A stretch of 64,000 nucleotides of DNA from an uncultured bacterium (GCA_964397565.1 CAYNJC010000025.1:84-64083), one strand, 5' to 3'. Shown: positions 3,137-61,088, counted from the first letter of the stretch. The notes: generated by a model not told the origin, from the letters alone. Numbers and translations are program-made.

Positions 3137-4609
3137 ATGGGATCAGACACTATCCGCGTGCGCTTTGCGCCGAGCCCGACCGGCATGCTGCATGTCGGCG
3201 GCGCGCGCACCGCCTTGTTCAACTGGCTGTTCGCGCGCCATTGCGGCGGCGCCTTCATTGTGCGGATCGAAGACACCGACCGCGCCCGCTTTGACGCGCG
3301 CGCCCTCGATGACATAACCGCCAGTTTGCGCTGGCTCGGCCTGCAATGGGACGAGGGCTATGAAGTTGGCGGGCCGTGCGGCCCGTATGTCCAGTCCGAG
3401 CGCAGCGCGCTCTACCTGCGGCACGCACAGCAATTGCTGGACAGTGGTCACGCCTACAAATGCTATTGCACGCCGGACCAGCTCGCGGCCGCGCGCGAGC
3501 AACAGCAACGCGACGGCAGCGCGCCCGGCTATGACCGCGCCTGCCGCGACCTCAGCCCCGACGCACGCGCCGCGCACGACGCGGCCGGCACGCCGTGTGT
3601 CATCCGCTTTCGCATGCCGTTGACGGGCGCGACCACCTTTACGGATGCGATTCGCGGCGTCATTTCGTATCCCAATGCGCAGCAGGATGATTTTGTGTTG
3701 TTGAAGAGCGATGGCTTCCCGACCTATCATTTGGCCAACATCGTGGATGACCATTTGATGCGGATTTCGCATGTGCTGCGCGGCGATGAATGGATCCCGA
3801 GCACACCCAAACATGTGCAGTTGTACGCGGCCTTCGGCTGGCAGCCGCCGGTGTTTGCGCATCTGCCCGTGATTCTGGCGCCGGGCGGCGGCAAGCTCTC
3901 GAAACGGCATGGCGCCGCGGCCGTCTGCGAATACCGCGCGCGCGGCTATCTGCCGGACGCGCTGGTCAATTTCCTGGCCTTGCTGGGCTGGGCAGTCTCG
4001 TCGGATAATGAGATCGTGCCGCGCGCGCAGATGATTAAAGAGTTCACGCTCGAAGGCATCAACAAGACCGGCGCGCAATTCGATCATGAAAAACTGAACT
4101 GGATGAACGGCGCCTACATTCGGCAATTGCCGCTGGCGGAGTTTATCCGCGAAGTAACGCCGTTTCTGACGGCCGCCGGCGTGCTCACGGGCGATGAGGA
4201 CCACGTGCGGGTCGCGCAGGTCTTGCAGATGGAGCAGGCGCGCGTGCATCTCTTGTCGGATGCGCCGGCCGCCTGTGCATTCTTCTTTGCGGACCCGCTC
4301 GAGTATGAGCCGCAGGCGGTCAAGAAAATTCTGCAGAAGGCCGGCACGCGCGCCCATCTGCAGGCCGTGCACGACCTGCTGGCCGGCGTGCCGAGCGACC
4401 AGTTTGACGCGGCGCATCTGGAAACGCTGCTGCAGGAGTATCTGACCCGCAGCGGGCAGCCGCTGAAAAATATCGTGCATCCCTTGCGCGTCGCGGTCAC
4501 CGGCCGGTCCGCCAGCCCGGGCATTTTTGAAACGCTGGTGGGCATCGGCCAAGCGCGCGTCGTGCAACGCCTCGCCTATGCCGTCGAGCATTTGTGCAAC
4601 ACGCCGTAG
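3137..4609 (+). CDS. gltX: Glutamate--tRNA ligase
   Basis: RVRFAPSPTGMLHVGGARTALFNWLFAR (HIGH-type motif) and KLSKRH (KMSKS-type motif). Internal ATG at 3137 preferred over the ORF-track start at 3098. Confidence 0.9.
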   Translation: MGSDTIRVRFAPSPTGMLHVGGARTALFNWLFARHCGGAFIVRIEDTDRARFDARALDDITASLRWLGLQWDEGYEVGGPCGPYVQSERSALYLRHAQQLLDSGHAYKCYCTPDQLAAAREQQQRDGSAPGYDRACRDLSPDARAAHDAAGTPCVIRFRMPLTGATTFTDAIRGVISYPNAQQDDFVLLKSDGFPTYHLANIVDDHLMRISHVLRGDEWIPSTPKHVQLYAAFGWQPPVFAHLPVILAPGGGKLSKRHGAAAVCEYRARGYLPDALVNFLALLGWAVSSDNEIVPRAQMIKEFTLEGINKTGAQFDHEKLNWMNGAYIRQLPLAEFIREVTPFLTAAGVLTGDEDHVRVAQVLQMEQARVHLLSDAPAACAFFFADPLEYEPQAVKKILQKAGTRAHLQAVHDLLAGVPSDQFDAAHLETLLQEYLTRSGQPLKNIVHPLRVAVTGRSASPGIFETLVGIGQARVVQRLAYAVEHLCNTP

Positions 4610-5208
4610 AACAACAATCGGAGCGGGTAGTCAATCTCGCCAACGCCATCACGCTGGTGCGCATCCTGTGCACCCCGGTGTTTGTGGCGCTGCTGGTGCG
4701 GCATCGCTTGGTGCACAATGTCACGCCGGATGCAGCGGTACTGACGTGGTATCGCCATTGCGCGCTGGGCGTGTTTATCTTCGCTTCGCTGTCGGATGCC
4801 GTGGACGGCTACCTGGCGCGCCGCTTTGGCCAGCGCACCACCGTGGGCGCCTGGCTTGATCCCTTGGCCGACAAATTGTTGTTGACGACCGCAGTGCTGA
4901 CGCTGAGTCTGCCCGTGGGCCTGCCGGAGCGCTTTCCGTTTTGGTTTCCAATTGTGACTTTGACGCGCGATTTCATTATTTTGACCGGCACGGTCCTTCT
5001 TTTCATGCTGCGCGGCAGCGTCGAAATAAAACCGGCCTTAGCCGGCAAATTGACGACCTGCGCGCAAATGCTGTGCGTCATTCTGGCATTGCTGGTGGTG
5101 CCGGCAACGGCCTTGTTCTGGGCGCTGGGCGCCGCGACAGTCTTGACCTGTGTGTCGGGCGCGCAGTATGTGGCGCGTGGCTTCCGGCAAATGAACGCGC
5201 AAGGATGA
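4594..5208 (+). CDS. pgsA: CDP-diacylglycerol--glycerol-3-phosphate 3-phosphatidyltransferase (CDP-alcohol phosphatidyltransferase family)
   Basis: Motif DAVDGYLARRFGQRTTVGAWLDPLAD fits D-x2-DG-x2-AR-x8-G-x3-D-x3-D. Multi-TM protein. First codon is GTG, so the exact start is uncertain. Confidence 0.8.
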   Translation: MQHAVEQQSERVVNLANAITLVRILCTPVFVALLVRHRLVHNVTPDAAVLTWYRHCALGVFIFASLSDAVDGYLARRFGQRTTVGAWLDPLADKLLLTTAVLTLSLPVGLPERFPFWFPIVTLTRDFIILTGTVLLFMLRGSVEIKPALAGKLTTCAQMLCVILALLVVPATALFWALGAATVLTCVSGAQYVARGFRQMNAQG

Positions 5209-5212
5209 ACGC

Positions 5213-6547
5213 ATGACCCGCTTCGCAATTGTAGGCCGGCCGAATGTCGGCAAGTCGGCCTTGTTCAACCGCCTGATTGGCCGGCGTCTCGCGATTGTTG
5301 ACGCCGAAAGCGGCGTGACGCGCGATCGCCTGCACGTCGTGTCCGAATGGCAGGGCACGTATTTCGCGCTGATGGACACGGGCGGCTTGGTCAGCCAGCC
5401 GGACGAGCTCGAGACGCATATCGCCCACCAAGTCGCGCAGGCCGTCGCGGAAGCGGATGTGCTCTTGTTCATGGTGGACGGCCAGTGCGGGCGCCTGCCG
5501 CTGGATGACGAGGTGGCGGCGCGCGTGCGCGCGATCAACAAACCCGTCTGGCTGGTGGTGTCGAAGGCCGACACGCAGGCGCTGGACGATGCCTGGACGG
5601 ATTTTGCCGAGTACGGCTTTGCGCGGCGCTTCACCCTCTCGGCCTTGCATGGGCGTGGGATCAACACCCTGCTGGATGCGATGATCGAGGTTGCCGACGA
5701 CGACGTGCCGACCGAGGCACCGGCCAAGATTTCAATCGCCATCTTAGGCCGGCCTAACGCGGGCAAGTCGTCGCTGCTGAATGCGCTGTTGGGCACGGAT
5801 CGTGCGATTGTCAGCCCGATTCCGGGCACGACCCGCGACGCCGTGGACGCCCACGTGTTGTTCGACTACACGCACAAGCGCGCGCTCCTGCGCGAACAGA
5901 TCATCCTGATTGACACGGCCGGCATCCGCCGCAAGCGCACGATCAAGACGACCCTCGAGTATTATGCGATTCATCGCGCGGAAGCCGCCTTGGCGCGCGC
6001 CAGTGTCGCCATCCTGTTGATGGACGCCGAAGCCGGCGTGACCGTGACCGACAAGAAAATCGCTGCGTTGATCGCCGAGGCCGGCAAGGGCTGCGTCATC
6101 GGCGTCAACAAATGGGACCTGATGGAGAAAGCCACAACCACCCGCGCGTTCAGCGCCTGGGTGCGCGCGCAACTGCCGTTTGTGGCCTATGCCCCGCTGG
6201 TGTTCCTCTCGGCCCGGACGGGCGAGAATGTCCGCCCGCTGGTGCAGCGCGCCTGCAGCGTCCACCATTCAACCCATCTGCGCGTCAGCACCGGCGTGTT
6301 GAACGAGCGCCTGCAAAAGATTTTCACCACGACCCCGCCGCCGATGCTGCGCGGCAAACGCTTGAAATATTACTATGCGACCCAAGTCAGCGTCGCACCG
6401 CCGCGGATCGTCTTGTTTGTCAACGATCCGGAACGCGCGCAACAAGCCTATGCGCAGTATGTCACCAATCAACTGCGCACGGCATTTGACTATACCGGCG
6501 CGCCCGTCGTGCTGGAATGGCGCAAGCGCGACGACGCCCACCGCTAA
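5213..6547 (+). CDS. der: Ribosome-associated GTPase Der (EngA)
   Basis: Two tandem G domains (GRPNVGKSALFN and GRPNAGKSSLLN) plus a KH-like C-terminus. AAGGA Shine-Dalgarno upstream. Confidence 0.92.
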   Translation: MTRFAIVGRPNVGKSALFNRLIGRRLAIVDAESGVTRDRLHVVSEWQGTYFALMDTGGLVSQPDELETHIAHQVAQAVAEADVLLFMVDGQCGRLPLDDEVAARVRAINKPVWLVVSKADTQALDDAWTDFAEYGFARRFTLSALHGRGINTLLDAMIEVADDDVPTEAPAKISIAILGRPNAGKSSLLNALLGTDRAIVSPIPGTTRDAVDAHVLFDYTHKRALLREQIILIDTAGIRRKRTIKTTLEYYAIHRAEAALARASVAILLMDAEAGVTVTDKKIAALIAEAGKGCVIGVNKWDLMEKATTTRAFSAWVRAQLPFVAYAPLVFLSARTGENVRPLVQRACSVHHSTHLRVSTGVLNERLQKIFTTTPPPMLRGKRLKYYYATQVSVAPPRIVLFVNDPERAQQAYAQYVTNQLRTAFDYTGAPVVLEWRKRDDAHR

Positions 6548-6550
6548 CGC

Positions 6551-7162
6551 ATGCTGCTGGTCATTGTGGCATATTTGTGCGGCGCGATTCCGGGCGGCTA
6601 TTTGCTGAACCGCCTGCTGTGGCAGCCGTTGACGCCGCGCATGGCGCGCGCGCTGGCCGGCCGACGCGGCGCCGCACTGTTTCTGCGCGTGGCGCCGCGC
6701 GCTTTGTCGGTCATGGCGGATTTCTGCATCGGTGCGCTGGTCACATGGGCCTTGGCGAATCTGGCAGCGCACTTGCGTGGCACGCGCTGGGAATGGACCA
6801 TCCATCCGCTGGTTTCCGACGGCCTGGTCCATGGCGCAACCCTGATCGCGCTGGTCGTCGGGCATGCCCTGTCCGTCTATATTTGCGGCTGGGGCGGCAA
6901 AGGCATTGCCATGGCGCTGGGCGGTTTCATGATCTTGACGCCGATCCCCAGCCTGGTCGCCATCGGCGTCTTTTGCCTGACCACCGGCGTCACGCGACGC
7001 ATCGGGTTGGGCGGTGTGGCCGGCACGCTGGCCTTGCCCCTGGCGATCTGGTATATGGATCATTCCGCGCTGGTCTACATCGCGGTGGCCGGCTTGCTGT
7101 GTTGCTACACCGTGTTGGTACATGCCGTTGATTTTTTGCCCGGCCACCATGACCAGGCCTAG
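6551..7162 (+). CDS. plsY: Glycerol-3-phosphate acyltransferase PlsY
   Basis: N-terminal YLCGAIPGGYLL and GGKGIAMALGG motifs in a small multi-TM protein. Confidence 0.8.
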   Translation: MLLVIVAYLCGAIPGGYLLNRLLWQPLTPRMARALAGRRGAALFLRVAPRALSVMADFCIGALVTWALANLAAHLRGTRWEWTIHPLVSDGLVHGATLIALVVGHALSVYICGWGGKGIAMALGGFMILTPIPSLVAIGVFCLTTGVTRRIGLGGVAGTLALPLAIWYMDHSALVYIAVAGLLCCYTVLVHAVDFLPGHHDQA

Positions 7163-7658
7163 TCACAGCGTGCGCGTGGCCGTGCAAAATCGCCAGCGGG
7201 CGTGCCCGGTAGACTGCGCGGCCGTGCGCGCCCTGGCCCTGTTTGTCTTGGCGCACGAAGGCCGGCCGGCCAGCGCCGGCGCGACCGTGCGCTTGGTCAG
7301 TGACGCCGCCATGATCGCCTTCAACACCCGCTATTTTGGCAAAACCACACCGACGGATGTCATCAGTTTCCCGGACGCAACGACACCCGGCCACGACGCT
7401 ACCGGCGCGTATGTCGGCGACGTGCTCGTGTCGGTCGAACAAGCCCGGCGGTATGCCCAGGCCCATGCGCTCGCGCCGGACGTCGAGCTGGCCCGCTACG
7501 TGATTCACGGCCTGTTGCATTGTCTGGGCTACGACGATCTAGAACCGCGCGCGCGCCGCCGCATGCTGCCGCGCCAGGAAGCCTTGCTGCGCGCATGGCG
7601 GCGCCAGCCGGCCTGCAGGCCGCTCCTCAAAACGCCTGCAATTAAAGCTCCCCTATAG
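7149..7658 (+). CDS. ybeY: rRNA maturation endoribonuclease YbeY
   Basis: HGLLHCLGYDD zinc-binding motif. Internal ATG at 7149 chosen because the longer ORF (7014) runs through plsY in another frame. Confidence 0.85.
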   Translation: MTRPSHSVRVAVQNRQRACPVDCAAVRALALFVLAHEGRPASAGATVRLVSDAAMIAFNTRYFGKTTPTDVISFPDATTPGHDATGAYVGDVLVSVEQARRYAQAHALAPDVELARYVIHGLLHCLGYDDLEPRARRRMLPRQEALLRAWRRQPACRPLLKTPAIKAPL

Positions 7659-9885: not shown

Positions 9886-11067
9886 ATGAAAAACATTGTT
9901 GAAATCAAAAACACGAAGCAAGCGGTGTGGAGCGCGTTGAGGACAAGCGTTTTCGGAGCACTTGTCACCGTCTTGCTTGCCTCAGCCTGGATGTTTGCAC
10001 AAGAAGCTGCGACGAAACCAGGCGTTTCGCCAGAGCAGAAAAAGAGATTGGACCTAATGAAATCCAAAGGAACGGAAGCCTCATTGACCATTCTCCCCGT
10101 CCGACTTGGTGGGAAACCGTTGGCTCAAGAGACCGCACAGGCGAGAGATTTTCGGGCTCGTGTTACCGAAGTTGTGGGACTTTTTCTGGAGCAGCAGGGG
10201 CTGCAGAATATTGAACTTCAGAAAACGGCGTTCGAACCGGCAGCCAAGACCGACATGGCGAGTTTGGCTGCCTCTCTGGCTGAATTCGTCAAGCAGCATC
10301 CAATCACAACTGAATATGTTTTATACGCCGAGTTGCGTACCGACGGGATGAGCGCGCTCGTGGGCGACAAGACCGGCGCGGTCGTATGGTCCGACCGGCT
10401 GACGGCCCAGGATAAACTCTTCAAGAGTGGACCGCCGGAACCGATGGCCGTCATTGCCCTGCTGGTCAAGCGGCTGAGTCCGCAATTGGGTCTCACTGAG
10501 CAAACCAAGAAGGCCGCCAAGCCCGGCAAGATTGCGGCAGTCATGGCGGAGCGCAGCGGAGAGCCCCCCGAGAACGAAACCACGCCGCTCCCTGGACGCC
10601 AGGACGAGATGAAGAAAGCAATGCCCAACGCGACCTTGGTGGTTTTTCCGCCTCGGGTCCGGGTGGCTGAGAATGCCGCAGAAGCCGGGAATGCCGCCGA
10701 CCTTGTGAAACTGATCAATGCTGCGGGATTGTGCAAGGCCGAGCCTGCCAAGCAGTCCCTATTGCTCAAGGCTTCCCAGGCTGATGTGAATGAGGCGAAG
10801 GTGATGTGGGACCTGGCGCGCGAGTTCCGGGACTACGCCAGGAAAAACCCGACAGATGCTGATTACGTTCTCTATGCGGACTACCGATTCAACCCGCAAC
10901 GATGGGAGGCAGGATTTGTGCATTTCATTGTGTGCGACCGCAGGGGCGAGTGGGTCCTCGCGGACCTGGTGAACTCGCATCACCCCGAATACCAGAGCAT
11001 CAAGCCGACATCGAGGGAGGACTGCGACAAGATTCTGGTCAAACGGCTGAAGGATTACCTGAAATGA
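9886..11067 (+). CDS. Hypothetical exported/membrane-anchored protein with internal domain duplication
   Basis: AAAGGA Shine-Dalgarno 7 nt upstream. N-terminal hydrophobic segment VFGALVTVLLASAWMFA. Two ~130-aa halves share motifs (HPITTEYVLYAELR and NPTDADYVLYADYR; VVWSD and WVLAD). No family recognised. Confidence 0.7.
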   Translation: MKNIVEIKNTKQAVWSALRTSVFGALVTVLLASAWMFAQEAATKPGVSPEQKKRLDLMKSKGTEASLTILPVRLGGKPLAQETAQARDFRARVTEVVGLFLEQQGLQNIELQKTAFEPAAKTDMASLAASLAEFVKQHPITTEYVLYAELRTDGMSALVGDKTGAVVWSDRLTAQDKLFKSGPPEPMAVIALLVKRLSPQLGLTEQTKKAAKPGKIAAVMAERSGEPPENETTPLPGRQDEMKKAMPNATLVVFPPRVRVAENAAEAGNAADLVKLINAAGLCKAEPAKQSLLLKASQADVNEAKVMWDLAREFRDYARKNPTDADYVLYADYRFNPQRWEAGFVHFIVCDRRGEWVLADLVNSHHPEYQSIKPTSREDCDKILVKRLKDYLK

Positions 11068-51175: not shown

Positions 51176-52474
51176 ATGCCCTCCCCCGCCATTACCGTCT
51201 CCGGTCTCAGCAAAGTGTATCGCATTGGTGCACCGCGCGAACCGTATTTGACATTGCGCGACAGCGTCGCCGGCGCAGCCACACAGGTCATGCGGCAGGT
51301 TGCGCGCCTGGCGACGGGCGCGGCGCGCGGCGCACGCGACGGCGAAGAGTTGTGGGCGCTCACGAATGTCAGTTTCGAAGTCAACCAGGGCGAATGCTTC
51401 GGCATCATTGGCCGCAATGGCGCGGGCAAGACGACTTTGCTGAAGATTCTCAGCCAGATCACTCCGCCAACAGCCGGGCGGATCATTTGTCGCGGCCGCG
51501 TCGCCAGTCTGCTGGGTGTCGGCACAGGCTTTCATCCCGAACTGACCGGGCGCGAGAATATTTTTCTGAACGGCACGATTCTGGGCATGACGCGCGCCGA
51601 GGTGCGGCGGAAGTTTGACGAAATTGTCGCCTTTGCCGAGATCGAGCGCTTCCTGGAGACGCCCGTCAAGCGCTACTCGAGCGGCATGTATGTGCGCCTG
51701 GCATTTGCCGTTGCGGCCCATCTCGAGCCGGAGATTTTGGTGGTAGACGAAGTACTGGCGGTGGGCGACACGGCCTTTCAGAAGAAGTGTCTGGGCAAAA
51801 TGGAAGCTGTCGCCAGTCATGGGCGCACGGTGTTGTTTGTCAGCCACAACATGGCGGTCATTGCGGCGTTATGCAAGCAAGCGGTTCTGTTGGAGAGCGG
51901 CCGCGTGGCCGCAGCGGGCCGCGCGGACGACGTGGTGCGCGCGTATCTGACCACGGCGGCGGCCGAAGGTACGTCGGCGCAAGCGTACCAGACGATCGCG
52001 CCGGTAGAGCATGACGCGGCGTGGGGCGGCACCAGCCGCATTGCGTTTCGCTCGATCCGACTGGTGAATAATGCCTATCCGACCTTCACGGTGCACTGGA
52101 AGGAACCGATCACGCTCGAAGTCGAGTTTGCAGTGCAACAGCCGGCGCGCAATGTCGTGTTCTCCCTAACGGTCTCCACGCTCGAGGGCGTTGGCATATT
52201 TCGCGTGCACAGCAATGATGCAGGCGGGCGCTTGTTCTCCTTCGAGCCGGGCAGTCACCGGATCAGCTTGGTGGTCGAGAATGCGCTGCAAGCCGGCAAT
52301 TACGTTGTGGCGCTGGACGGCACCACGGCGGTGGGCAACGTGCCGCTCGCTCGCGTTGCAAGAGCGGCGGGGCTGGAAGTGTTGGATGTCGCGTTGGGCG
52401 AGGAACTCTCGCCGCAGCGCGGCGGGCATTTGGTTAACGGCGCGGCCTTGTGGTCGGAGCCGGTGCGGTGCTGA
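51176..52474 (+). CDS. wzt: Polysaccharide ABC exporter ATP-binding protein with Wzt-like C-terminal domain
   Basis: Walker A GRNGAGKTT, signature YSSGMYVRL, Walker B ILVVDE, plus a ~170-aa beta-rich C-terminal extension. Confidence 0.82.
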   Translation: MPSPAITVSGLSKVYRIGAPREPYLTLRDSVAGAATQVMRQVARLATGAARGARDGEELWALTNVSFEVNQGECFGIIGRNGAGKTTLLKILSQITPPTAGRIICRGRVASLLGVGTGFHPELTGRENIFLNGTILGMTRAEVRRKFDEIVAFAEIERFLETPVKRYSSGMYVRLAFAVAAHLEPEILVVDEVLAVGDTAFQKKCLGKMEAVASHGRTVLFVSHNMAVIAALCKQAVLLESGRVAAAGRADDVVRAYLTTAAAEGTSAQAYQTIAPVEHDAAWGGTSRIAFRSIRLVNNAYPTFTVHWKEPITLEVEFAVQQPARNVVFSLTVSTLEGVGIFRVHSNDAGGRLFSFEPGSHRISLVVENALQAGNYVVALDGTTAVGNVPLARVARAAGLEVLDVALGEELSPQRGGHLVNGAALWSEPVRC

Positions 52475-56028: not shown

Positions 56029-56202
56029 TCACTTGCGCCGCAGCAACAGCCAGAGCGGCAGCGCGGCGGCCAGAATCAGCGCCGGTTCCGGCACGGTCGT
56101 GTCCAGCGTAAAATCCGGCGATTCGGCCTGGCCCCAATCGGCCAGACAGGGCAAGGTCCAGATTACCAGAATCGCCAGCAGAATCATTAGTTTTGTGTGC
56201 AT
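56029..56202 (-). CDS. Minimal PEP-CTERM protein (57 aa)
   Basis: GGAG 7 nt upstream of the ATG. MHTKLMILLAILVIWTLPCLA signal peptide, a 15-aa middle part (DWGQAESPDFTLDTT), then VPEP-ALILAAALPLWLLL-RRK. Confidence 0.65.
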   Translation of the reverse strand: MHTKLMILLAILVIWTLPCLADWGQAESPDFTLDTTVPEPALILAAALPLWLLLRRK

Positions 56203-56292
56203 GGTTTTTCTCCCCAATAAATGTTGCTGTACGCAGGTAAAATAGCATAGCACAAACGCCGACAAAAGGCAAAGGCCGGCGCAGGCCGGTCG

Positions 56293-57522
56293 TCACTGCG
56301 GCGTGTCCGCCAGCCAGTGGTGGAGCGTATGCTTGCTGCGCGCGCGCGGCGTCAGTGTCGTGGCGCCGCGCCATAAGTTGAAGACCGTGCGCCCATAGCG
56401 TGCCAGCAACGTCATCAGGCGAACAGGATAGTAGAGGTACAGCACGGGCGAGGTCGCACGTACGCCATAGAGCCGCGCGAGGACTGCCTTGGGTACGCAG
56501 ACGTTGTGCACGAACAGCGAGATTTTCTTGTGCCACACGGCATCGTGCCACGCCACCACATTGGGCGACAGCGCCGCGTCCGCGGTCACATCCGTGAGGA
56601 TTTGTGTCCGGGCGCAGAACAGCACGGGGTCTGGCAAAGAATCTGGGCGCAGCTCGCGCAGAACCTGCGCAGGCACGGCGGCGCCAACCATGTCGTGCGC
56701 CAGTTGCAGCGCCAGAAAGACACCGCGCGTCCAGCGCCACGCCCGCGCGCGCGCCACCACATCCGGCCACGCCAGGCTCTCGTGCTGCCATCGTATGATC
56801 TGCGCAATATCACAGAACGGGCGCAAACCAAACTCGAATTCGTGCTGATAAGCCGCATGGAAACAGGCATAGAGCAGGAGATCCTCGGCGCACAAGCCCA
56901 GGACGCTGTTATCGCCGATGCGCACCGGCACGGCACGCTGCCACAGGTCACCGGGTTCAATCGAATAGACGTGCCGCGGCGCAGTGATGTTCCAGTGCAG
57001 CTCGATCGTGGTGCGGCCTTGCTGCGCGAAGGGCGGCAGATGCAAGTTGCCGTCGAAGAACGCCTGGTCGAGCACATACGGGAACTGCGCCGCGTAGCCG
57101 TGGCGCTCCAGAACGTGCGCGACGCGCGCCAGGTTGCCGCGTGGCACCAGCAGATCAATATCCACCATTTGCCGCGCGCCGAGGTCGTCATAGACGCCAA
57201 AGGCAAGATGTGCGCCTTTGAGCAGCACGACCGGCTGATGGTCGGCGTGGAGCGCGGCCGCGATGTCGTGCAGCTCATTGCGGATGCGAAGATTGCGCAC
57301 CGCGTTTGATGCGTAGAACGTCTGCAACGTGTGCAGGGCGTCACGGGCCGGCGGCCCCGTGATGCCGAGCGCCTTGATGCGCTGGTACACAAGGCCGACC
57401 ACTTGCTGCGCCAGCGCGTCGTGCAGCAGCGCCTGCCACTCGTTTGCTTGCAGGGCTGCCAGGTGCGCGGCCGTCGCACGCTCATTGCCCGGACGCAGGC
57501 AGTCGAGCAGCAGCTCGGTCAT
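56293..57522 (-). CDS. Nucleotidyltransferase family protein (PF14907/NTP_transf_5-like)
   Basis: MVDIDLLVPRG motif, size and context. The ATG at 57522 forms an ATGA overlap with the upstream gene. Confidence 0.55.
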   Translation of the reverse strand: MTELLLDCLRPGNERATAAHLAALQANEWQALLHDALAQQVVGLVYQRIKALGITGPPARDALHTLQTFYASNAVRNLRIRNELHDIAAALHADHQPVVLLKGAHLAFGVYDDLGARQMVDIDLLVPRGNLARVAHVLERHGYAAQFPYVLDQAFFDGNLHLPPFAQQGRTTIELHWNITAPRHVYSIEPGDLWQRAVPVRIGDNSVLGLCAEDLLLYACFHAAYQHEFEFGLRPFCDIAQIIRWQHESLAWPDVVARARAWRWTRGVFLALQLAHDMVGAAVPAQVLRELRPDSLPDPVLFCARTQILTDVTADAALSPNVVAWHDAVWHKKISLFVHNVCVPKAVLARLYGVRATSPVLYLYYPVRLMTLLARYGRTVFNLWRGATTLTPRARSKHTLHHWLADTPQ

Positions 57523-58490
57523 GACAAGCACTTCCGCATGGGGATGCGCCGGCGGCCGTAGTGCTCGACGTCGGCGGCCAGCTCTGCTGCGAGTGCCGCG
57601 ATGGTCACGCGTTCGAAGCCAAGTTTCTCATAGAGGGCGCGGGCGGGACAATTGTCCTCGAAGACGGTCAAGAGCAGCTCCTGGGCGCCGGCAGCCGTGG
57701 CTTGGTCAATCACGTGGCGGACCAATTCTGCGCCAATGCCCATGCCGCGATAGCGTGTTCTGACGGTCAGACTGTAGAGCCAATGGCCGACCCGCGGGGT
57801 ATCGCCGGCGGGGTGCCGCATCAGCCGGACGAAGCCCAGCAACTCTGTGCCGCGCGTGGCGACGTAGTTGGTCAGGCCTGGCGGAGCAGTCGGCGCGGCG
57901 GCGGGCAGGTCACGCGCGGCGGACAGATCGAGCCATGCGGCCACGCGAACAAGCTCCGCGGGCGTGGCTTCTCGGATGACGAAGGTGGGGCGGCAGCGAT
58001 GCAGCAGTGCGCGCAATAATGGGCTGCGCTGCAGGCGCCCGAGCGCGCGGCCGCTGGCGTGCCGCAGCCATCTCGTCAGCGCGCACAGCCACGCGATCAG
58101 CGGTGCACAGCATGTGCAGACCAGGCCGGCGAACCACCAAGCGCCGCGGTCGAGTGTGCGGCTGCGCCCGGCGTGGGTGGCGTGCGTCACCGTGCCGAGC
58201 AGGTCGCGCGGCGCGAGCGGCCCCGCGCGGTGAGTCTGCGCGTCACCGCGCAGCCAGACGCCCTCGCCACGCACACGCACCACGCGATGGACCACGTACC
58301 GTGCGGGCGCGGACTCGGCCAGCACAATGTCGCCCCGCGCCGGCGCAGCACACTGGGGCGCCAGCTCGATGACATCACCGTCGTGAATGATCGGCCACAT
58401 GCTGTTGCCGTTGACCGTCATGCGCACGCATTGCCCGCGTGCCAGCGCCGCGCGGATGACCGGCATCATGGCATGGCCGGGGATCGTCAT
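57519..58490 (-). CDS. S24/S26-type (signal-peptidase-like) peptidase - TM - GNAT acetyltransferase fusion
   Basis: GNSMWP nucleophile motif, HRVVRV where bacterial SPase I has KR, then LRGD. A hydrophobic segment WWFAGLVCTCCAPLIAWLCAL. GNAT motif A YRGMGIGAELVRHVIDQA ... ALYEKLGFE. ATGA overlap with the kinase gene. Confidence 0.6.
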   Translation of the reverse strand: MTIPGHAMMPVIRAALARGQCVRMTVNGNSMWPIIHDGDVIELAPQCAAPARGDIVLAESAPARYVVHRVVRVRGEGVWLRGDAQTHRAGPLAPRDLLGTVTHATHAGRSRTLDRGAWWFAGLVCTCCAPLIAWLCALTRWLRHASGRALGRLQRSPLLRALLHRCRPTFVIREATPAELVRVAAWLDLSAARDLPAAAPTAPPGLTNYVATRGTELLGFVRLMRHPAGDTPRVGHWLYSLTVRTRYRGMGIGAELVRHVIDQATAAGAQELLLTVFEDNCPARALYEKLGFERVTIAALAAELAADVEHYGRRRIPMRKCLS

Positions 58491-59389
58491 AGCGCCGCAC
58501 GCACGAGCGGAATGACGGCCTTCTCCGCGCGGCAGCGCAGGCGGAAGACGGGCGTGCGCGCCAAAATCGTGTTGAGATTGGTCAGCGCGCGTTGCAGCAG
58601 CGGCGCATCCCAATACGGCAGAAATGTGCGCGCCAGCAGCAGCGGCGCGGCCGCCGTCGGTGCGAGTTGTTCGATCCGGTTCTCCGGCGCTTGTTCCAGC
58701 AGAATGATGGCACGCAGTGGCGCGGCATGATTGCGGGCAATATTGGCCGTGCCACCCCAGGGCGTGCCGTAGCACATGGCGGTGTGTGCGTTGACGCGTA
58801 CGGCGATGCGGTCGTCGTTCATGGCGATCACGCCCGGCTCCTGGGTCCACAGGCACGCGTGTGTGCTCTTGCCGGCGCCGGAATGCCCGACGAAGACAAG
58901 GCCCTGGCCGTGGTCGTCAATGCCGGACGCGTGAAAAACCAGACCATCGGTGAAGAGCACGGCGGTGCGCAGCAGCAGTTCGCCCGCGCCGATGTTAAGG
59001 ACGCTCTGCCACGTCGTGCCGTGCGGTCGCCCGGCCGGGACGCTGCGCTGTTCGGTCAGCGTCAGATCGTTCCACGCGGCATTGGCGCGCAGGACGCTGT
59101 GCATCTGCGCCGGCTGCTTGTCATCATGATACGTAATCGCGGCGTAGAACTCGGCGCCGTCGCGATACATGCGCCAGATCGAGCCCGGGTCGTACACCAA
59201 GGTGCCGCGCGGCTCGGGCGTGTCCGCGCTTTCCTCCCAGTGCAGCACGACGCGCGCCAGCGGCTGTGGCGTCAGGCCGAAGAATGGGCCGAGGCGTTGT
59301 TCGATCCCCAATTCGGCGGCGGACAGCGGGCTGTGCAGCTCGATCACAATGTCGGCGATCGAAATCGGTATGTTATGTTGGTTGGCCAT
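58487..59389 (-). CDS. HPr kinase/phosphorylase-related kinase
   Basis: P-loop LVFVGHSGAGKSTHACLW followed by NDD, as in the HprK C-terminal domain. Start is ATG at 59389 or TTG at 59413, and both overlap the 3' end of the rSAM gene. Confidence 0.7.
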   Translation of the reverse strand: MANQHNIPISIADIVIELHSPLSAAELGIEQRLGPFFGLTPQPLARVVLHWEESADTPEPRGTLVYDPGSIWRMYRDGAEFYAAITYHDDKQPAQMHSVLRANAAWNDLTLTEQRSVPAGRPHGTTWQSVLNIGAGELLLRTAVLFTDGLVFHASGIDDHGQGLVFVGHSGAGKSTHACLWTQEPGVIAMNDDRIAVRVNAHTAMCYGTPWGGTANIARNHAAPLRAIILLEQAPENRIEQLAPTAAAPLLLARTFLPYWDAPLLQRALTNLNTILARTPVFRLRCRAEKAVIPLVRAAL

Positions 59390-60443
59390 GCTGTTCCTTG
59401 CGCGCCCAGGCAACTTCGCACAGATACGGCACCGGTTCGTTCAACGTATGCGTCTCGAGCAACGACCAAGCCGGGCAGCGCGGGCAGTAGACGCGCGCGC
59501 CGCAGTTCCGGCAGGCATCAGCCAGCGGCGGTGCCGTGTCAACATAGCGCTGCGTCTGTTCCCATGCCGCGCGAAAGCCAACCTCCAGCGGGCGCGCGGC
59601 CGGCAGCGGCAAGTCCATGCAGACGTTCATCTCCCCGCGCGGATTGATGACAAACGAAGCCGCGCCAGCCTGACAGTGGAAATTGCGATCATGGGCCGGC
59701 GCGACTGCGTGCCGCGCCGTTTCAGTCCACCCTCTGGCCGAGATTTGGTCGGTCGCTTCGAGTGCGACACATGCGGACGGTGACAGGCGGCAGTGCTCCA
59801 CCTCGGAACACGCGCCATCGCGGCGCTGGGACAGCAGCCAGCCGCCCGAGAACGGCACACCCCAGTTGCGCGCCATCTGCCGCATTGCATCCAGTTCGCC
59901 CACGTTTTGCCGCGTGACCGTCGTCTTGAGCCCGAGCGGCACACGCCGCCGCACGAGCGCCTCAATCCCGGCGCAGCAGCGCGCGTAACTGCCGGCGACA
60001 CCGGTGATCGCCTCGTAGGTCGCCGTAGTGGCGCCGTAGAGCGTGATCTCCGTCCGGCTCGGCGGCGCTTCCGCCAGGCGTTGCGCCAGCGCCTCGCTGA
60101 CCAACGTCCCATTGCTGAACAGCGTCAGCAGCAGACCCATTCTGGTCAGCGGCGTGTAAATCTCAAAAAAATCGGGCCGCAGGAGAACTTCGCCGCCCGT
60201 CAGCAGCAGAAAGAGCATGCCCTCGTCAACGGCCGCGCGCGCCAGTGTCAGCCATGCCGCCGCCGTCAGCTCCTCCGCGCGCACCGTGGCGTCGCCGCCA
60301 GATTGGCTGATGTAGCACATGCGGCAGGCCAAGTTGCAGCGCGCCGTGAGTTCAAAGGTGCCATTGACGGGCTGGCGGCGCGCGGCGGCGCGCGCGTGCA
60401 GTTCACGCACCAGATCGCCATACTCGCACGGCAGGCTGCTCAT
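59373..60443 (-). CDS. Radical SAM/SPASM domain peptide-modifying enzyme
   Basis: CNLACRMC (CX3CX2C) near the N-terminus. C-terminal SPASM cysteines (CQAG ... NVC ... CRNCGARVYCPRC). ATGA overlap with the PqqD-like gene. Confidence 0.85.
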   Translation of the reverse strand: MSSLPCEYGDLVRELHARAAARRQPVNGTFELTARCNLACRMCYISQSGGDATVRAEELTAAAWLTLARAAVDEGMLFLLLTGGEVLLRPDFFEIYTPLTRMGLLLTLFSNGTLVSEALAQRLAEAPPSRTEITLYGATTATYEAITGVAGSYARCCAGIEALVRRRVPLGLKTTVTRQNVGELDAMRQMARNWGVPFSGGWLLSQRRDGACSEVEHCRLSPSACVALEATDQISARGWTETARHAVAPAHDRNFHCQAGAASFVINPRGEMNVCMDLPLPAARPLEVGFRAAWEQTQRYVDTAPPLADACRNCGARVYCPRCPAWSLLETHTLNEPVPYLCEVAWARKEQHGQPT

Positions 60444-60706
60444 CCGTCAACCATGCCCAGCGGCGCGATCTCATCGAGAAAGGTTTGCACATCGGCGCGG
60501 GCGCGCACCGGCTCGACGGCAAACCGTTCGACCACGATGGCTGTCAGTTCATCCAGCGTGCGCTCTTCTGCCAGCAGCTCCCACACACAGCAGGCCGTGT
60601 CGTTTAGGATCACCAAGCCATTCATCTCCATAACCTGGGCGCCCAGCGGCGTCAGCAGAGCGACGCCTCCAACATTCTGTAGCATGAATTTCTCACTGCG
60701 TTTCAT
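60440..60706 (-). CDS. PqqD-family protein (RiPP recognition element candidate)
   Basis: 88 aa. NDTACCVWELLAEERTLDELTAIVVERFAVEPVRARADVQTFLDEI is a typical PqqD-like pattern. The ATG at 60706 lies just downstream of the attenuator. Confidence 0.8.
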   Translation of the reverse strand: MKRSEKFMLQNVGGVALLTPLGAQVMEMNGLVILNDTACCVWELLAEERTLDELTAIVVERFAVEPVRARADVQTFLDEIAPLGMVDG

Positions 60707-60751
60707 CTTCTTGCCTTGGTTGGAACCCGACGAAACATCAGTCCGGGCCAC

Positions 60752-60794
60752 AAATAAAAAAGCTGGCCTGCATCCTTTTCACGGTGCGGCCAGC
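60752..60794 (-). terminator. Intrinsic terminator/attenuator between the precursor and maturase genes
   Basis: Minus-strand GCTGGCCGCA ... TGCAGGCCAGC stem (one bulge) followed by TTTTTTATTT. Confidence 0.6.
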
Positions 60795-60923
60795 AGCTTC
60801 TTGATGAAACCTTTTCCGGCGAATGTTACCACGCCTCGCCACTGTCCCGTGTACCAATATCGTGCTCCCTTCGCCGATTGGTACGTGCCACGAGCAGCGG
60901 ACTACGCGGTAGACAAACGCCGC

Positions 60924-61088
60924 TTACGAGCCACTCGGCCCGTTTGAGCATGTCCTCGGGTCGGTCTTCAAACAGCCCAGCAATCTCTCCTCCAGCTTAA
61001 GCGGGACAAAGGTTGCCTTGGGCGCCTCATAGGGCTGCTTGTGCGATGCCTGCGCCGCAGTGGTCACGGTGATGTGCTGCTTTTCCAT
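60924..61088 (-). CDS. Candidate precursor peptide (54 aa), not in the ORF track
   Basis: GGAGAG-ttagc-ATG. Sequence MEKQHITVTTAAQASHKQPYEAPKATFVPLKLEERLLGCLKTDPRTCSNGPSGS*. Lies directly upstream of PqqD and the rSAM gene on the same strand, with a consensus promoter at 61146-61174. Confidence 0.7.
   Translation of the reverse strand: MEKQHITVTTAAQASHKQPYEAPKATFVPLKLEERLLGCLKTDPRTCSNGPSGS

Follow-up and report, generated by a model that had tools for sequence, protein, structure and literature searches.

The window, a 64,000-nucleotide stretch of DNA from an uncultured bacterium (GCA_964397565.1 CAYNJC010000025.1:84-64083), encodes a 300-residue kinase-like protein of the ScmC family on its minus strand (58487-59389), within an operon for a peptide that is made by the ribosome and modified after translation (RiPP). 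This protein is probably an ATP-dependent peptide serine kinase of the HprK/PEPCK fold that acts on the C-terminal serine of the precursor peptide encoded in the same operon. The assignment draws on sequence comparison and structural modelling. The predicted fold, the catalytic tetrad, the homology to a kinase from a lasso-peptide cluster, the terminal serine found in 93% of the precursors and the co-variation of this serine with the ScmC gene agree in pointing to the C-terminal phosphorylation that an original prediction for this DNA had put forward.

The terminal serine and its co-variation with the kinase gene

The precursor is a peptide of 54 amino acids, encoded by a 54-codon open reading frame (ORF) at 60924-61088 on the minus strand and supported by homologues found with the leader profile. 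Its leader contains YEAP, which conforms to a YxxP motif, and the segment FVPLKLEERLL, and its core is GCLKTDPRTCSNGPSGS. The C-terminal sequence reads ...LGCLKTDPRTCSNGPSGS; the ending ...NGPSGS, from which the original prediction had started, was recovered in this ORF as ...CSNGPSGS. The codon of the terminal residue, Ser54, lies at 60927-60929 on the minus strand, and its conservation in homologues makes it the predicted phosphorylation site. The YxxP motif of the leader is followed by ...ATFVPLKLEERLL-x-C-x-K.

A search with the single precursor sequence yielded 11 matches. Because circularity with respect to the terminal serine was to be avoided, an alignment was built from leaders only (A3); it was cut after the CxK motif, contained no C-terminal information and was searched against a collection of 5.8 billion proteins. 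The resulting set comprised 122 distinct precursors, 111 of them first listed by the A3 search and 11 contributed by the single-sequence search, of which A3 found 7 again. Serine is the terminal residue in 114 of the 122 (93%) and threonine in two. At all other core positions serine amounts to 7.3%, and positions -2 to -5 are variable without preference. In the core, cysteine stands at +2 in every precursor, lysine at +4 in 105 and one of A, G, T or S at +1; the remainder is hypervariable. Exactly two cysteines, 5-19 residues apart, are present in 114 precursors, and the tail behind the last cysteine measures 3-16 residues. The terminal serine is the only conserved hydroxyl residue in the core and ends a variable, probably flexible tail. 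Among the homologous small ORFs of the kinase-first loci, 27 of 30 end in serine as well. A conserved terminal serine on a variable peptide is the pattern reported for lasso precursors accompanied by a kinase (PMC9266682).

Co-variation with the ScmC gene is the main new evidence that ties the terminal serine to the kinase, and its direction is consistent. The genomic context of the exceptions was looked up, metagenome contigs were scanned with the leader profile, and near-duplicates were removed. After de-duplication, the precursors of 14 of the 16 ScmC-positive loci end in serine, the exceptions being L042 with threonine and L084 with ...FSH. Other termini were found in most cassettes that lack the gene. 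In L041 and L093 neither an ScmC nor an S24 gene follows the radical SAM gene; the PqqD and radical SAM proteins are 66% and 72% identical to those of the window, and the precursor, present on 19 contigs, ends ...KGCEAG. In L046 an S24 peptidase gene lies ~50 bases downstream of the radical SAM gene, ScmC is absent, and the precursor ends ...YPKEPR. L075 has no ScmC gene in the 1 kb downstream of the radical SAM gene (terminus ...QVEVT). L043 retains a 49-codon ScmC stump followed by a transposase gene (terminus ...VIEKA), and in L090 a serine recombinase gene comes after the radical SAM gene (terminus ...VPVSC). In L082 an insertion sequence (IS)-type helix-turn-helix ORF occupies this place, and the precursor still ends in serine. 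When only the metagenome scan was counted (14:1 versus 1:3), Fisher's exact test gave p = 0.016; the value was 0.004 once the targeted look-ups were added and 0.001 with the kinase-first loci as well.

Two further observations were made on the cassettes without ScmC. L041 (6001-7496), and likewise L093, is a natural minimal cassette that comprises just the genes for the precursor, PqqD and the radical SAM enzyme; its very short core reads KCHHLKGCEAG. Mobile-element genes occupy the usual ScmC position in L043 (DDE transposase, 3957-5832), L082 (the helix-turn-helix ORF, 4315-4821) and L090 (the recombinase, 6032-7654), which suggests repeated disruption at this position.

Because L046 keeps the S24 gene but has neither ScmC nor the terminal serine, the serine tracks the kinase and not the peptidase. 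It does not track the radical SAM enzyme either, since L041 has a radical SAM protein 72% identical to that of the window but lacks both ScmC and the serine. This comparison bears on another explanation, in which the terminal serine is required by the radical SAM enzyme, for an MftC-like C-terminal reaction or a Cys-to-Ser cross-link, and the ScmC protein does something else. MftC, the mycofactocin maturase, acts at the last residue of its peptide, and of the NCBIfam models only that of MftC aligns with the radical SAM protein over nearly the full length (residues 24-338 versus 10-328 of 339), at 81 bits and thus below the cut-off of 265. However, ScmC-less cassettes whose radical SAM proteins are 68-72% identical to that of the window (L041/L093 and L046) have precursors with shortened tails that end in G or R. 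Because both cysteines and the CxK motif are kept in these precursors, the serine is dispensable for the radical SAM chemistry, and we consider a requirement of this enzyme for it very unlikely.

Fold, active site and relatives of the kinase-like protein

The kinase-like gene had been placed at 58487-59413. An ORF exists there on the minus strand and opens with TTG 59413, but its start was corrected. The recorded product P0001 (300 amino acids, 100% identical) and the homologues start at ATG 59389, and AAGGAA is found six bases upstream of this codon; therefore, 58487-59389 was taken as the true gene. There is a 17-nucleotide overlap between this start and the stop of the radical SAM gene, and at its other end the gene meets the peptidase gene in an ATGA junction.

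In the NCBIfam comparison, the protein reached 35.3 bits with HprK_rel_B (cut-off 200), 24.6 bits with ScmC TIGR04249 (cut-off 125; E 1.4e-5, residues 155-294) and 16.7 bits with HprK_rel_A (cut-off 200), and it gave no match to TIGR00679 at E <= 0.01. With PF07475 it scored 14.4 bits (cut-off 33.3). Because the scores lie below the cut-offs, the protein is not an equivalog of ScmC TIGR04249, HprK_rel_B or HprK_rel_A; the second-tier ScmC relatives are likewise unclassified by NCBIfam, and two of their representatives sit on contigs too short for a view of the gene neighbourhood. According to precomputed Pfam labels, P0001 and all 120 homologues listed belong to PF27840 (ScmC), and a Pfam scan without the PF27840 model returned only a weak AAA_33 match. 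A profile search of 1.84 billion representatives yielded 11,831 at E <= 1e-3, a count of representatives at 50% identity, and 423 at E <= 1e-30.

The AlphaFold2 model, for which 21 orthologues were used, had a pLDDT (predicted local distance difference test) of 89 and a pTM (predicted template modelling score) of 0.88. In a Foldseek search against the Protein Data Bank (PDB) at E <= 1e-3, its matches were limited to ATP-dependent PEPCK (18 chains, namely 17 crystal-structure chains and one integrative model) and the catalytic domain of HprK/P (22 chains; 1kkl, 1jb1, 1knx, 1ko7, 3tqf and 2qmh). PEPCK and HprK/P are known members of one P-loop kinase fold; the former matched the whole length of the model and the latter the catalytic domain. 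By sequence, a single-sequence search of the PDB found only a P-loop match to adenylate kinase, and a profile search reached HprK/P at E 0.07, among ABC-transporter P-loops.

The P-loop GHSGAGKST named in the original prediction is present as the Walker A motif of residues 168-176 (58862-58888, minus strand; Lys174 at 58868-58870). Together with His153 (58931-58933, minus strand) and the pair Asp192-Asp193 of an NDDR motif (58811-58816, minus strand), which is predicted to be metal-binding and catalytic, Lys174 forms a His-Lys-Asp-Asp tetrad, assigned by alignment and translation. In an alignment of the 21 orthologues, drawn from many phyla (A1), three residues of the tetrad (His153, Lys174 and Asp193) do not vary and the conservation of Asp192 is 90% or more, and the P-loop residues G168, G171, G173, K174 and T176 are invariant; the His and Lys of the tetrad are also kept in 44 second-tier relatives (A2). 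His153 aligns with the His of a lasso-cluster kinase and with that of the genome's own HprK/P. The fold, combined with a Walker A motif GxSGxGKS/T, an upstream His and a downstream Asp-Asp pair, places the protein in the HprK/PEPCK-fold superfamily. Lasso-peptide kinases, including ThcoK, share the His-Lys-Asp-Asp motif and cannot function without it (PMC9266682), and PsmK is inactivated by the double mutation D158A/D159A in the equivalent Asp-Asp pair (PMC6993621).

Whole-length structural matches to PEPCK, a small-molecule kinase, would also suit a protein that is no peptide kinase: it might bind ATP as a scaffold, or phosphorylate a sugar, lipid or polysaccharide intermediate from the surrounding exopolysaccharide loci. 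Alternatively, the nucleotidyltransferase might nucleotidylate the serine directly. Many cassettes do sit among polysaccharide genes, as illustrated by an ABC ATPase gene of the window (51176-52474) and by epimerase and Wzy_C genes in L003 (7407-10609). Against such a role, the gene is translationally coupled within a peptide operon by the 17-nucleotide overlap and the ATGA junction, it is kept in the cassette irrespective of the neighbourhood, and it co-varies with a feature of the peptide. Moreover, homologous HprK-like enzymes are proven peptide kinases in two RiPP classes. A function away from the peptide, or direct nucleotidylation, is given only a slim chance.

A housekeeping HprK/P with HPr nearby was the outcome that the original prediction had named as speaking against it, and the genome shows a different arrangement. 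The true HprK/P is encoded on contig 11 (C11:85146-85652, 208.7 bits), 71 bases from the genome's only phosphotransferase system (PTS)-HPr gene (C11:84839-85075), and a genome profile search found neither a true HprK/P nor an HPr gene on the contig of the window, C25. The housekeeping enzyme (PF07475, TIGR00679) shares the P-loop catalytic-domain fold and the H...GxSGxGKS...DD layout with the kinase-like protein. With a separate HprK/P beside the only HPr gene on contig 11 and a PF07475 score below the cut-off, a housekeeping role was rejected. When the ScmC-like family was compared by hhalign with the genome's own HprK/P, a probability of 34.8% over 50 columns was obtained. The comparison with a lasso-cluster kinase gave 85.8% over 143 columns, that is, the whole catalytic domain including a terminal VPV(F/Y)RL motif, and BLASTP of the kinase-like protein against the same kinase gave 25.6% identity over 180 residues; this kinship refers to one lasso kinase, from locus L040, whose candidate precursor ends ...RFSP. 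HprK_rel_A was matched by the family with 93% probability, over 49 columns only.

L040 (7096-13041) is a genuine lasso cluster in a Desulfocapsa metagenome-assembled genome (MAG) in which the radical SAM cassette L016 is present as well. The cluster contains genes for an Asn-synthase cyclase, a 76-residue ORF, the HprK-like kinase, a transglutaminase-like B2 protein and an ABC exporter. Its most plausible precursor (10876-11022, minus strand) has the ending ...DDLRFSP, with serine as the penultimate and not the last residue.

Cassette conservation and comparison with known systems

The kinase-like protein has 418 homologues with 60-88% identity. In 24 kinase-first loci the genes follow the order precursor(s), PqqD, radical SAM, ScmC-like and S24-like peptidase as far as the contig allows, and the same order was found in 19 further loci reached via the precursor leader. 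Because the gene order recurs in these 24 and 19 loci, the pairing of precursor and kinase is not due to chance. The kinase-first loci come from Competibacter, WOR-3, Chloroflexota/Anaerolineae, Bipolaricaulota, Pirellulales/Planctomycetia, a PVC-group MAG, Desulfocapsa, Electronema and other Desulfobacterota, Fimbriimonadaceae/Armatimonadota, Bryobacterales/Acidobacteriota, Myxococcales and Kapaibacterium/Ignavibacteriaceae. The radical SAM maturase is an invariant member of the cassette. An S24 part follows directly after ScmC in all loci, with a GNAT domain in five. NTP_transf_5 genes occur in the flanks of 13 of the 24 kinase-first loci, of 6 of the 19 ScmC-positive precursor-first loci and of none of the ScmC-less cassettes, and some cassettes (L003, L042) include an ABC exporter.

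Several loci depart from the common arrangement. L065 (5031-9923, Ignavibacteria-type) has two full modules of precursor, PqqD and radical SAM genes in tandem, and L023 (2957-7864, also Ignavibacteria-type) has two precursor genes and ~2 kb between the radical SAM gene and ScmC; in loci of this kind one kinase may serve two modules. A second, rearranged cassette in Competibacter (L037, 7993-14835) encodes an S24-like peptidase, an HprK-like protein of 345 amino acids, PqqD and a radical SAM/SPASM protein; 4 kb upstream lie another HprK-like gene and an ABC exporter gene, and a precursor was not identified in this locus. A second, divergent ScmC-like gene (25-26% identity) stands beside the main cassette in L081 (8195-10073) and L084 (113-673), and the one in L081 lies on the opposite strand and adjoins an NTP_transf_5 gene. 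On the MAG contigs L024, L026 and L012 the genes for the radical SAM and ScmC proteins are seen as fragments in shifted frames, possibly as a result of assembly indel errors.

The closest counterpart outside the lasso peptides is the system of linear polyphosphorylated peptides (LPP), LppA/K/B/S/D/N of Paenibacillus alginolyticus, whose core set consists of a discrete RiPP recognition element (RRE), a kinase resembling HprK, an SpI-like peptidase and an NTP transferase, together with an MsbA-like exporter (Popov et al., Nat Commun 2026, PMC13381572). PqqD, ScmC-like, Peptidase_S24 and NTP_transf_5 proteins are all encoded in the window operon, and an exporter only in the related L003 and L042. 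Both systems combine a YxxP leader motif with a variable core, both often lie within polysaccharide or capsule loci, and the residues Ser30/His68/Asp83 of the window peptidase compare with S29/H68/D93 of LppS. The likeness of LppK to the ScmC branch is drawn from its published description. The LPP system has neither a radical SAM enzyme nor the conserved Cys pair; it is defined by the leader YxxPxVLxHQxIxFETxxS and by a linear product without another primary modification enzyme, from which the window cassette differs. LPP are reported to be restricted to Bacillota, whereas the cassette occurs in Chloroflexota, Planctomycetota, Acidobacteriota, Desulfobacterota, Ignavibacteria, Armatimonadota, WOR-3, Bipolaricaulota and Gammaproteobacteria.

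The site of phosphorylation also differs. LppK phosphorylates Ser3 of the core, beside the cleavage site, and the distance from YxxP to the leader/core junction appears similar in LPP and cassette leaders. The ScmC-like protein might by analogy be a peptide kinase for another site, either at this junction or at a variable Ser or Thr of the core, and the terminal serine might be kept for export, peptidase recognition or the nucleotidyltransferase. However, the cassette precursors have no conserved serine near the junction, and no Ser or Thr of the core other than the terminal one is conserved among the 122. The terminal serine, furthermore, co-varies with ScmC and not with S24, as seen in L046, and it is present in L001, L010, L016 and L017, where no nucleotidyltransferase gene is nearby. 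Phosphorylation at another site is consequently regarded as unlikely.

With the phosphorylated lasso peptides, namely paeninodin and its relatives (PadeK, ThcoK, SyanK) and pseudomycoidin (PsmK, PsmN), the cassette shares an HprK-like kinase with the His-Lys-Asp-Asp tetrad, a PqqD-type RRE and an optional NTP transferase, which in pseudomycoidin adds hexose to the phosphate. In both, the C-terminal serine is conserved on a variable peptide; it is the acceptor in the lasso precursors and the predicted acceptor in the cassette. The cassette differs in lacking a cyclase and a B2 protein, in having a radical SAM enzyme as the primary modification enzyme, and in its S24/S26-like, probable leader peptidase. 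Neither a lasso cyclase (Asn synthase homologue) nor a B2 peptidase is encoded in the window operon or on its contig, C25, where a PF00733 match is lacking; a hidden lasso cluster was rejected on these grounds. The kinase-like gene is in a non-lasso context. This part of the original prediction holds, but such a setting can no longer be called new or unprecedented, because the LPP study of 2026 shows an HprK-like kinase at work outside the lasso peptides.

Similar gene sets have been defined by bioinformatics. The SynChlorMet system includes ScmC (TIGR04249), an HprK-related P-loop protein encoded with PqqD and radical SAM/SPASM proteins, and Pfam places the window protein in the ScmC family. 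The HPr-rel-A system resembles the cassette in its PqqD chaperone, HprK-related kinase and NTP_transf_5 protein. SynChlorMet, HPr-rel-A and HprK_rel_B are bioinformatic definitions only, without an identified precursor. A literature search on ScmC and SynChlorMet returned nothing relevant, and we found no paper that combines HprK, radical SAM, a precursor peptide and phosphorylation. An HPr-rel-A system was seen in L036 (9247-11755; PqqD_rel_X 40 bits, HprK_rel_A 353 bits, NTP_transf_5, without radical SAM or cyclase genes). It lies within an exopolysaccharide locus (Bac_transf, polysaccharide deacetylase) on the same Acidobacteriota chromosome as cassette L025, and an upstream ORF of 80 amino acids ends ...HHPDDAK.

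The window operon, the proposed modification and its meaning

The operon consists of six consecutive minus-strand genes with overlapping or abutting ends (56293-61088). Behind the precursor gene, a PqqD-type RRE is encoded at 60440-60706 (PF05402, 1e-12). GTG 60751 opens its longest ORF, and the homologues, with orthologues of 88-91 amino acids, favour ATG 60706; the protein has weak matches to the lasso PqqD and GeoRSP PqqD models of NCBIfam. The radical SAM maturase, with a Cys-rich, SPASM-like C-terminal region, follows at 59373-60443 (PF04055, 4e-16). Apart from MftC, it matched AhbD, NirJ, ScmE/F and PqqE below their cut-offs, and these matches are restricted to the N-terminal core. Downstream of the kinase-like gene, 57519-58490 encodes an S24/S26-like peptidase with Ser30/His68/Asp83, a hydrophobic segment and a GNAT acetyltransferase (Peptidase_S24 5e-8, Acetyltransf_1 2e-17), which is the probable leader peptidase. 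The last gene, 56293-57522, encodes an NTP_transf_5 nucleotidyltransferase (PF14907, 5.5e-63; longest ORF from 57531). An ABC exporter gene is absent from the operon. In the vicinity, 51176-52474 encodes the ABC ATPase, which bears a C-terminal carbohydrate-binding-like extension, and 56029-56265 a small PEP-CTERM protein; polysaccharide-export-type genes near the cassette parallel the capsule-locus setting of LPP and of paeninodin-like clusters.

On this basis, a mechanism can be proposed. The PqqD protein would bind the YxxP motif of the leader, a motif recognised by lasso and LPP RREs (PMC13381572), and the radical SAM enzyme would modify the two-Cys core. Using ATP, the kinase would phosphorylate the hydroxyl group in the side chain of Ser54 one or more times; this residue would be presented on the flexible tail of 3-16 residues behind the second Cys. 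HprK-like kinases phosphorylate the C-terminal serine of lasso precursors (PMC9266682, PMC6993621), and as in paeninodin, pseudomycoidin and LPP the reaction probably takes place on the full-length precursor. Where present, the NTP_transf_5 enzyme is predicted, by analogy with pseudomycoidin, to decorate the phosphorylated serine, the phosphate receiving a further group such as a hexose. In pseudomycoidin, PsmN attaches hexoses to the phospho-Ser, although LppN was silent in a heterologous host (PMC6993621 and PMC13381572, respectively). By this precedent, direct nucleotidylation of the serine by the nucleotidyltransferase, which the original prediction had offered as a second option, appears less likely than decoration of a phosphate. 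The S24-like peptidase would remove the leader.

Phosphorylation could also be an activating step only, followed by beta-elimination to a C-terminal dehydroalanine or by displacement, so that the product would carry no phosphate. Class III/IV lanthipeptide synthetases form dehydro-residues in this way, by phosphorylation and subsequent elimination, and the core cysteines could add to a dehydroalanine. The conserved cassette, however, contains no lyase-like gene; the Cys pair is kept in ScmC-less cassettes and is therefore independent of the serine; and the presence of an NTP_transf_5 partner suggests that the phosphate stays in place and is decorated, as it is in pseudomycoidin. Transient phosphorylation is accordingly considered very unlikely, and a lasting phosphorylation of Ser54 by the ScmC-type kinase is preferred.

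Several points weigh against this assignment. Three ScmC-positive loci have only non-Ser or atypical precursors: L084 (...FSH), L008 (...GGVV) and L012, where a truncated precursor (...ERLFASYQPD) follows a T5 run and a reading-frame artefact was looked for, with none obvious. For the co-variation, the ScmC-less loci are few (4-6), some of which were picked for their exceptional precursors, and one of them, L082, keeps the terminal serine. Similarity to characterised kinases is low, with 26% identity to the lasso-cluster kinase and scores far below the cut-offs of the NCBIfam HprK-related models. The whole-length fold match is to PEPCK, which leaves room for a non-peptide phospho-acceptor. In LPP, the sole characterised non-lasso system, the phospho-Ser is near the N-terminus of the core and not at the C-terminus. 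The kinase activity of the ScmC branch is a prediction made by computation.

Taken with these points, the comparisons support the view that a known tailoring reaction, serine phosphorylation of RiPP precursors by an HprK-like kinase, is used in a new setting, namely an uncharacterised and widespread family of radical SAM peptides outside Bacillota. HprK-like peptide kinases have so far been shown in two RiPP settings, the lasso peptides and the LPP of Bacillota (2026). The locus would represent a third and much more widely distributed one, in which the same tailoring set is joined by a radical SAM maturase. The comparative data give a sharp prediction of one enzyme (58487-59389) and one acceptor (Ser54 of the 54-residue peptide), with a natural negative control in the kinase-less cassettes, whose peptides mostly lack a terminal serine. 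A further-reaching proposal, which we consider doubtful, is that of a distinct, phylum-spanning RiPP class in which the radical SAM enzyme cross-links the Cys pair, the ScmC-type kinase (poly)phosphorylates the C-terminal serine and the NTP_transf_5 enzyme extends it to a phosphodiester-linked glycan. The peptide would then serve the exopolysaccharide machinery, among whose genes the cassette is so often found, as a phospho-Ser primer or anchor, and a function would be assigned to the large ScmC/HprK-related superfamily with its 11,831 representatives. If phosphorylation of the terminal serine by the kinase-like protein holds true, it would already provide the first function for the Pfam family ScmC, since in the SynChlorMet cassette the protein is only a conserved hypothetical one, and it would establish which end group is borne by an uncharacterised family of peptides from many uncultured phyla.

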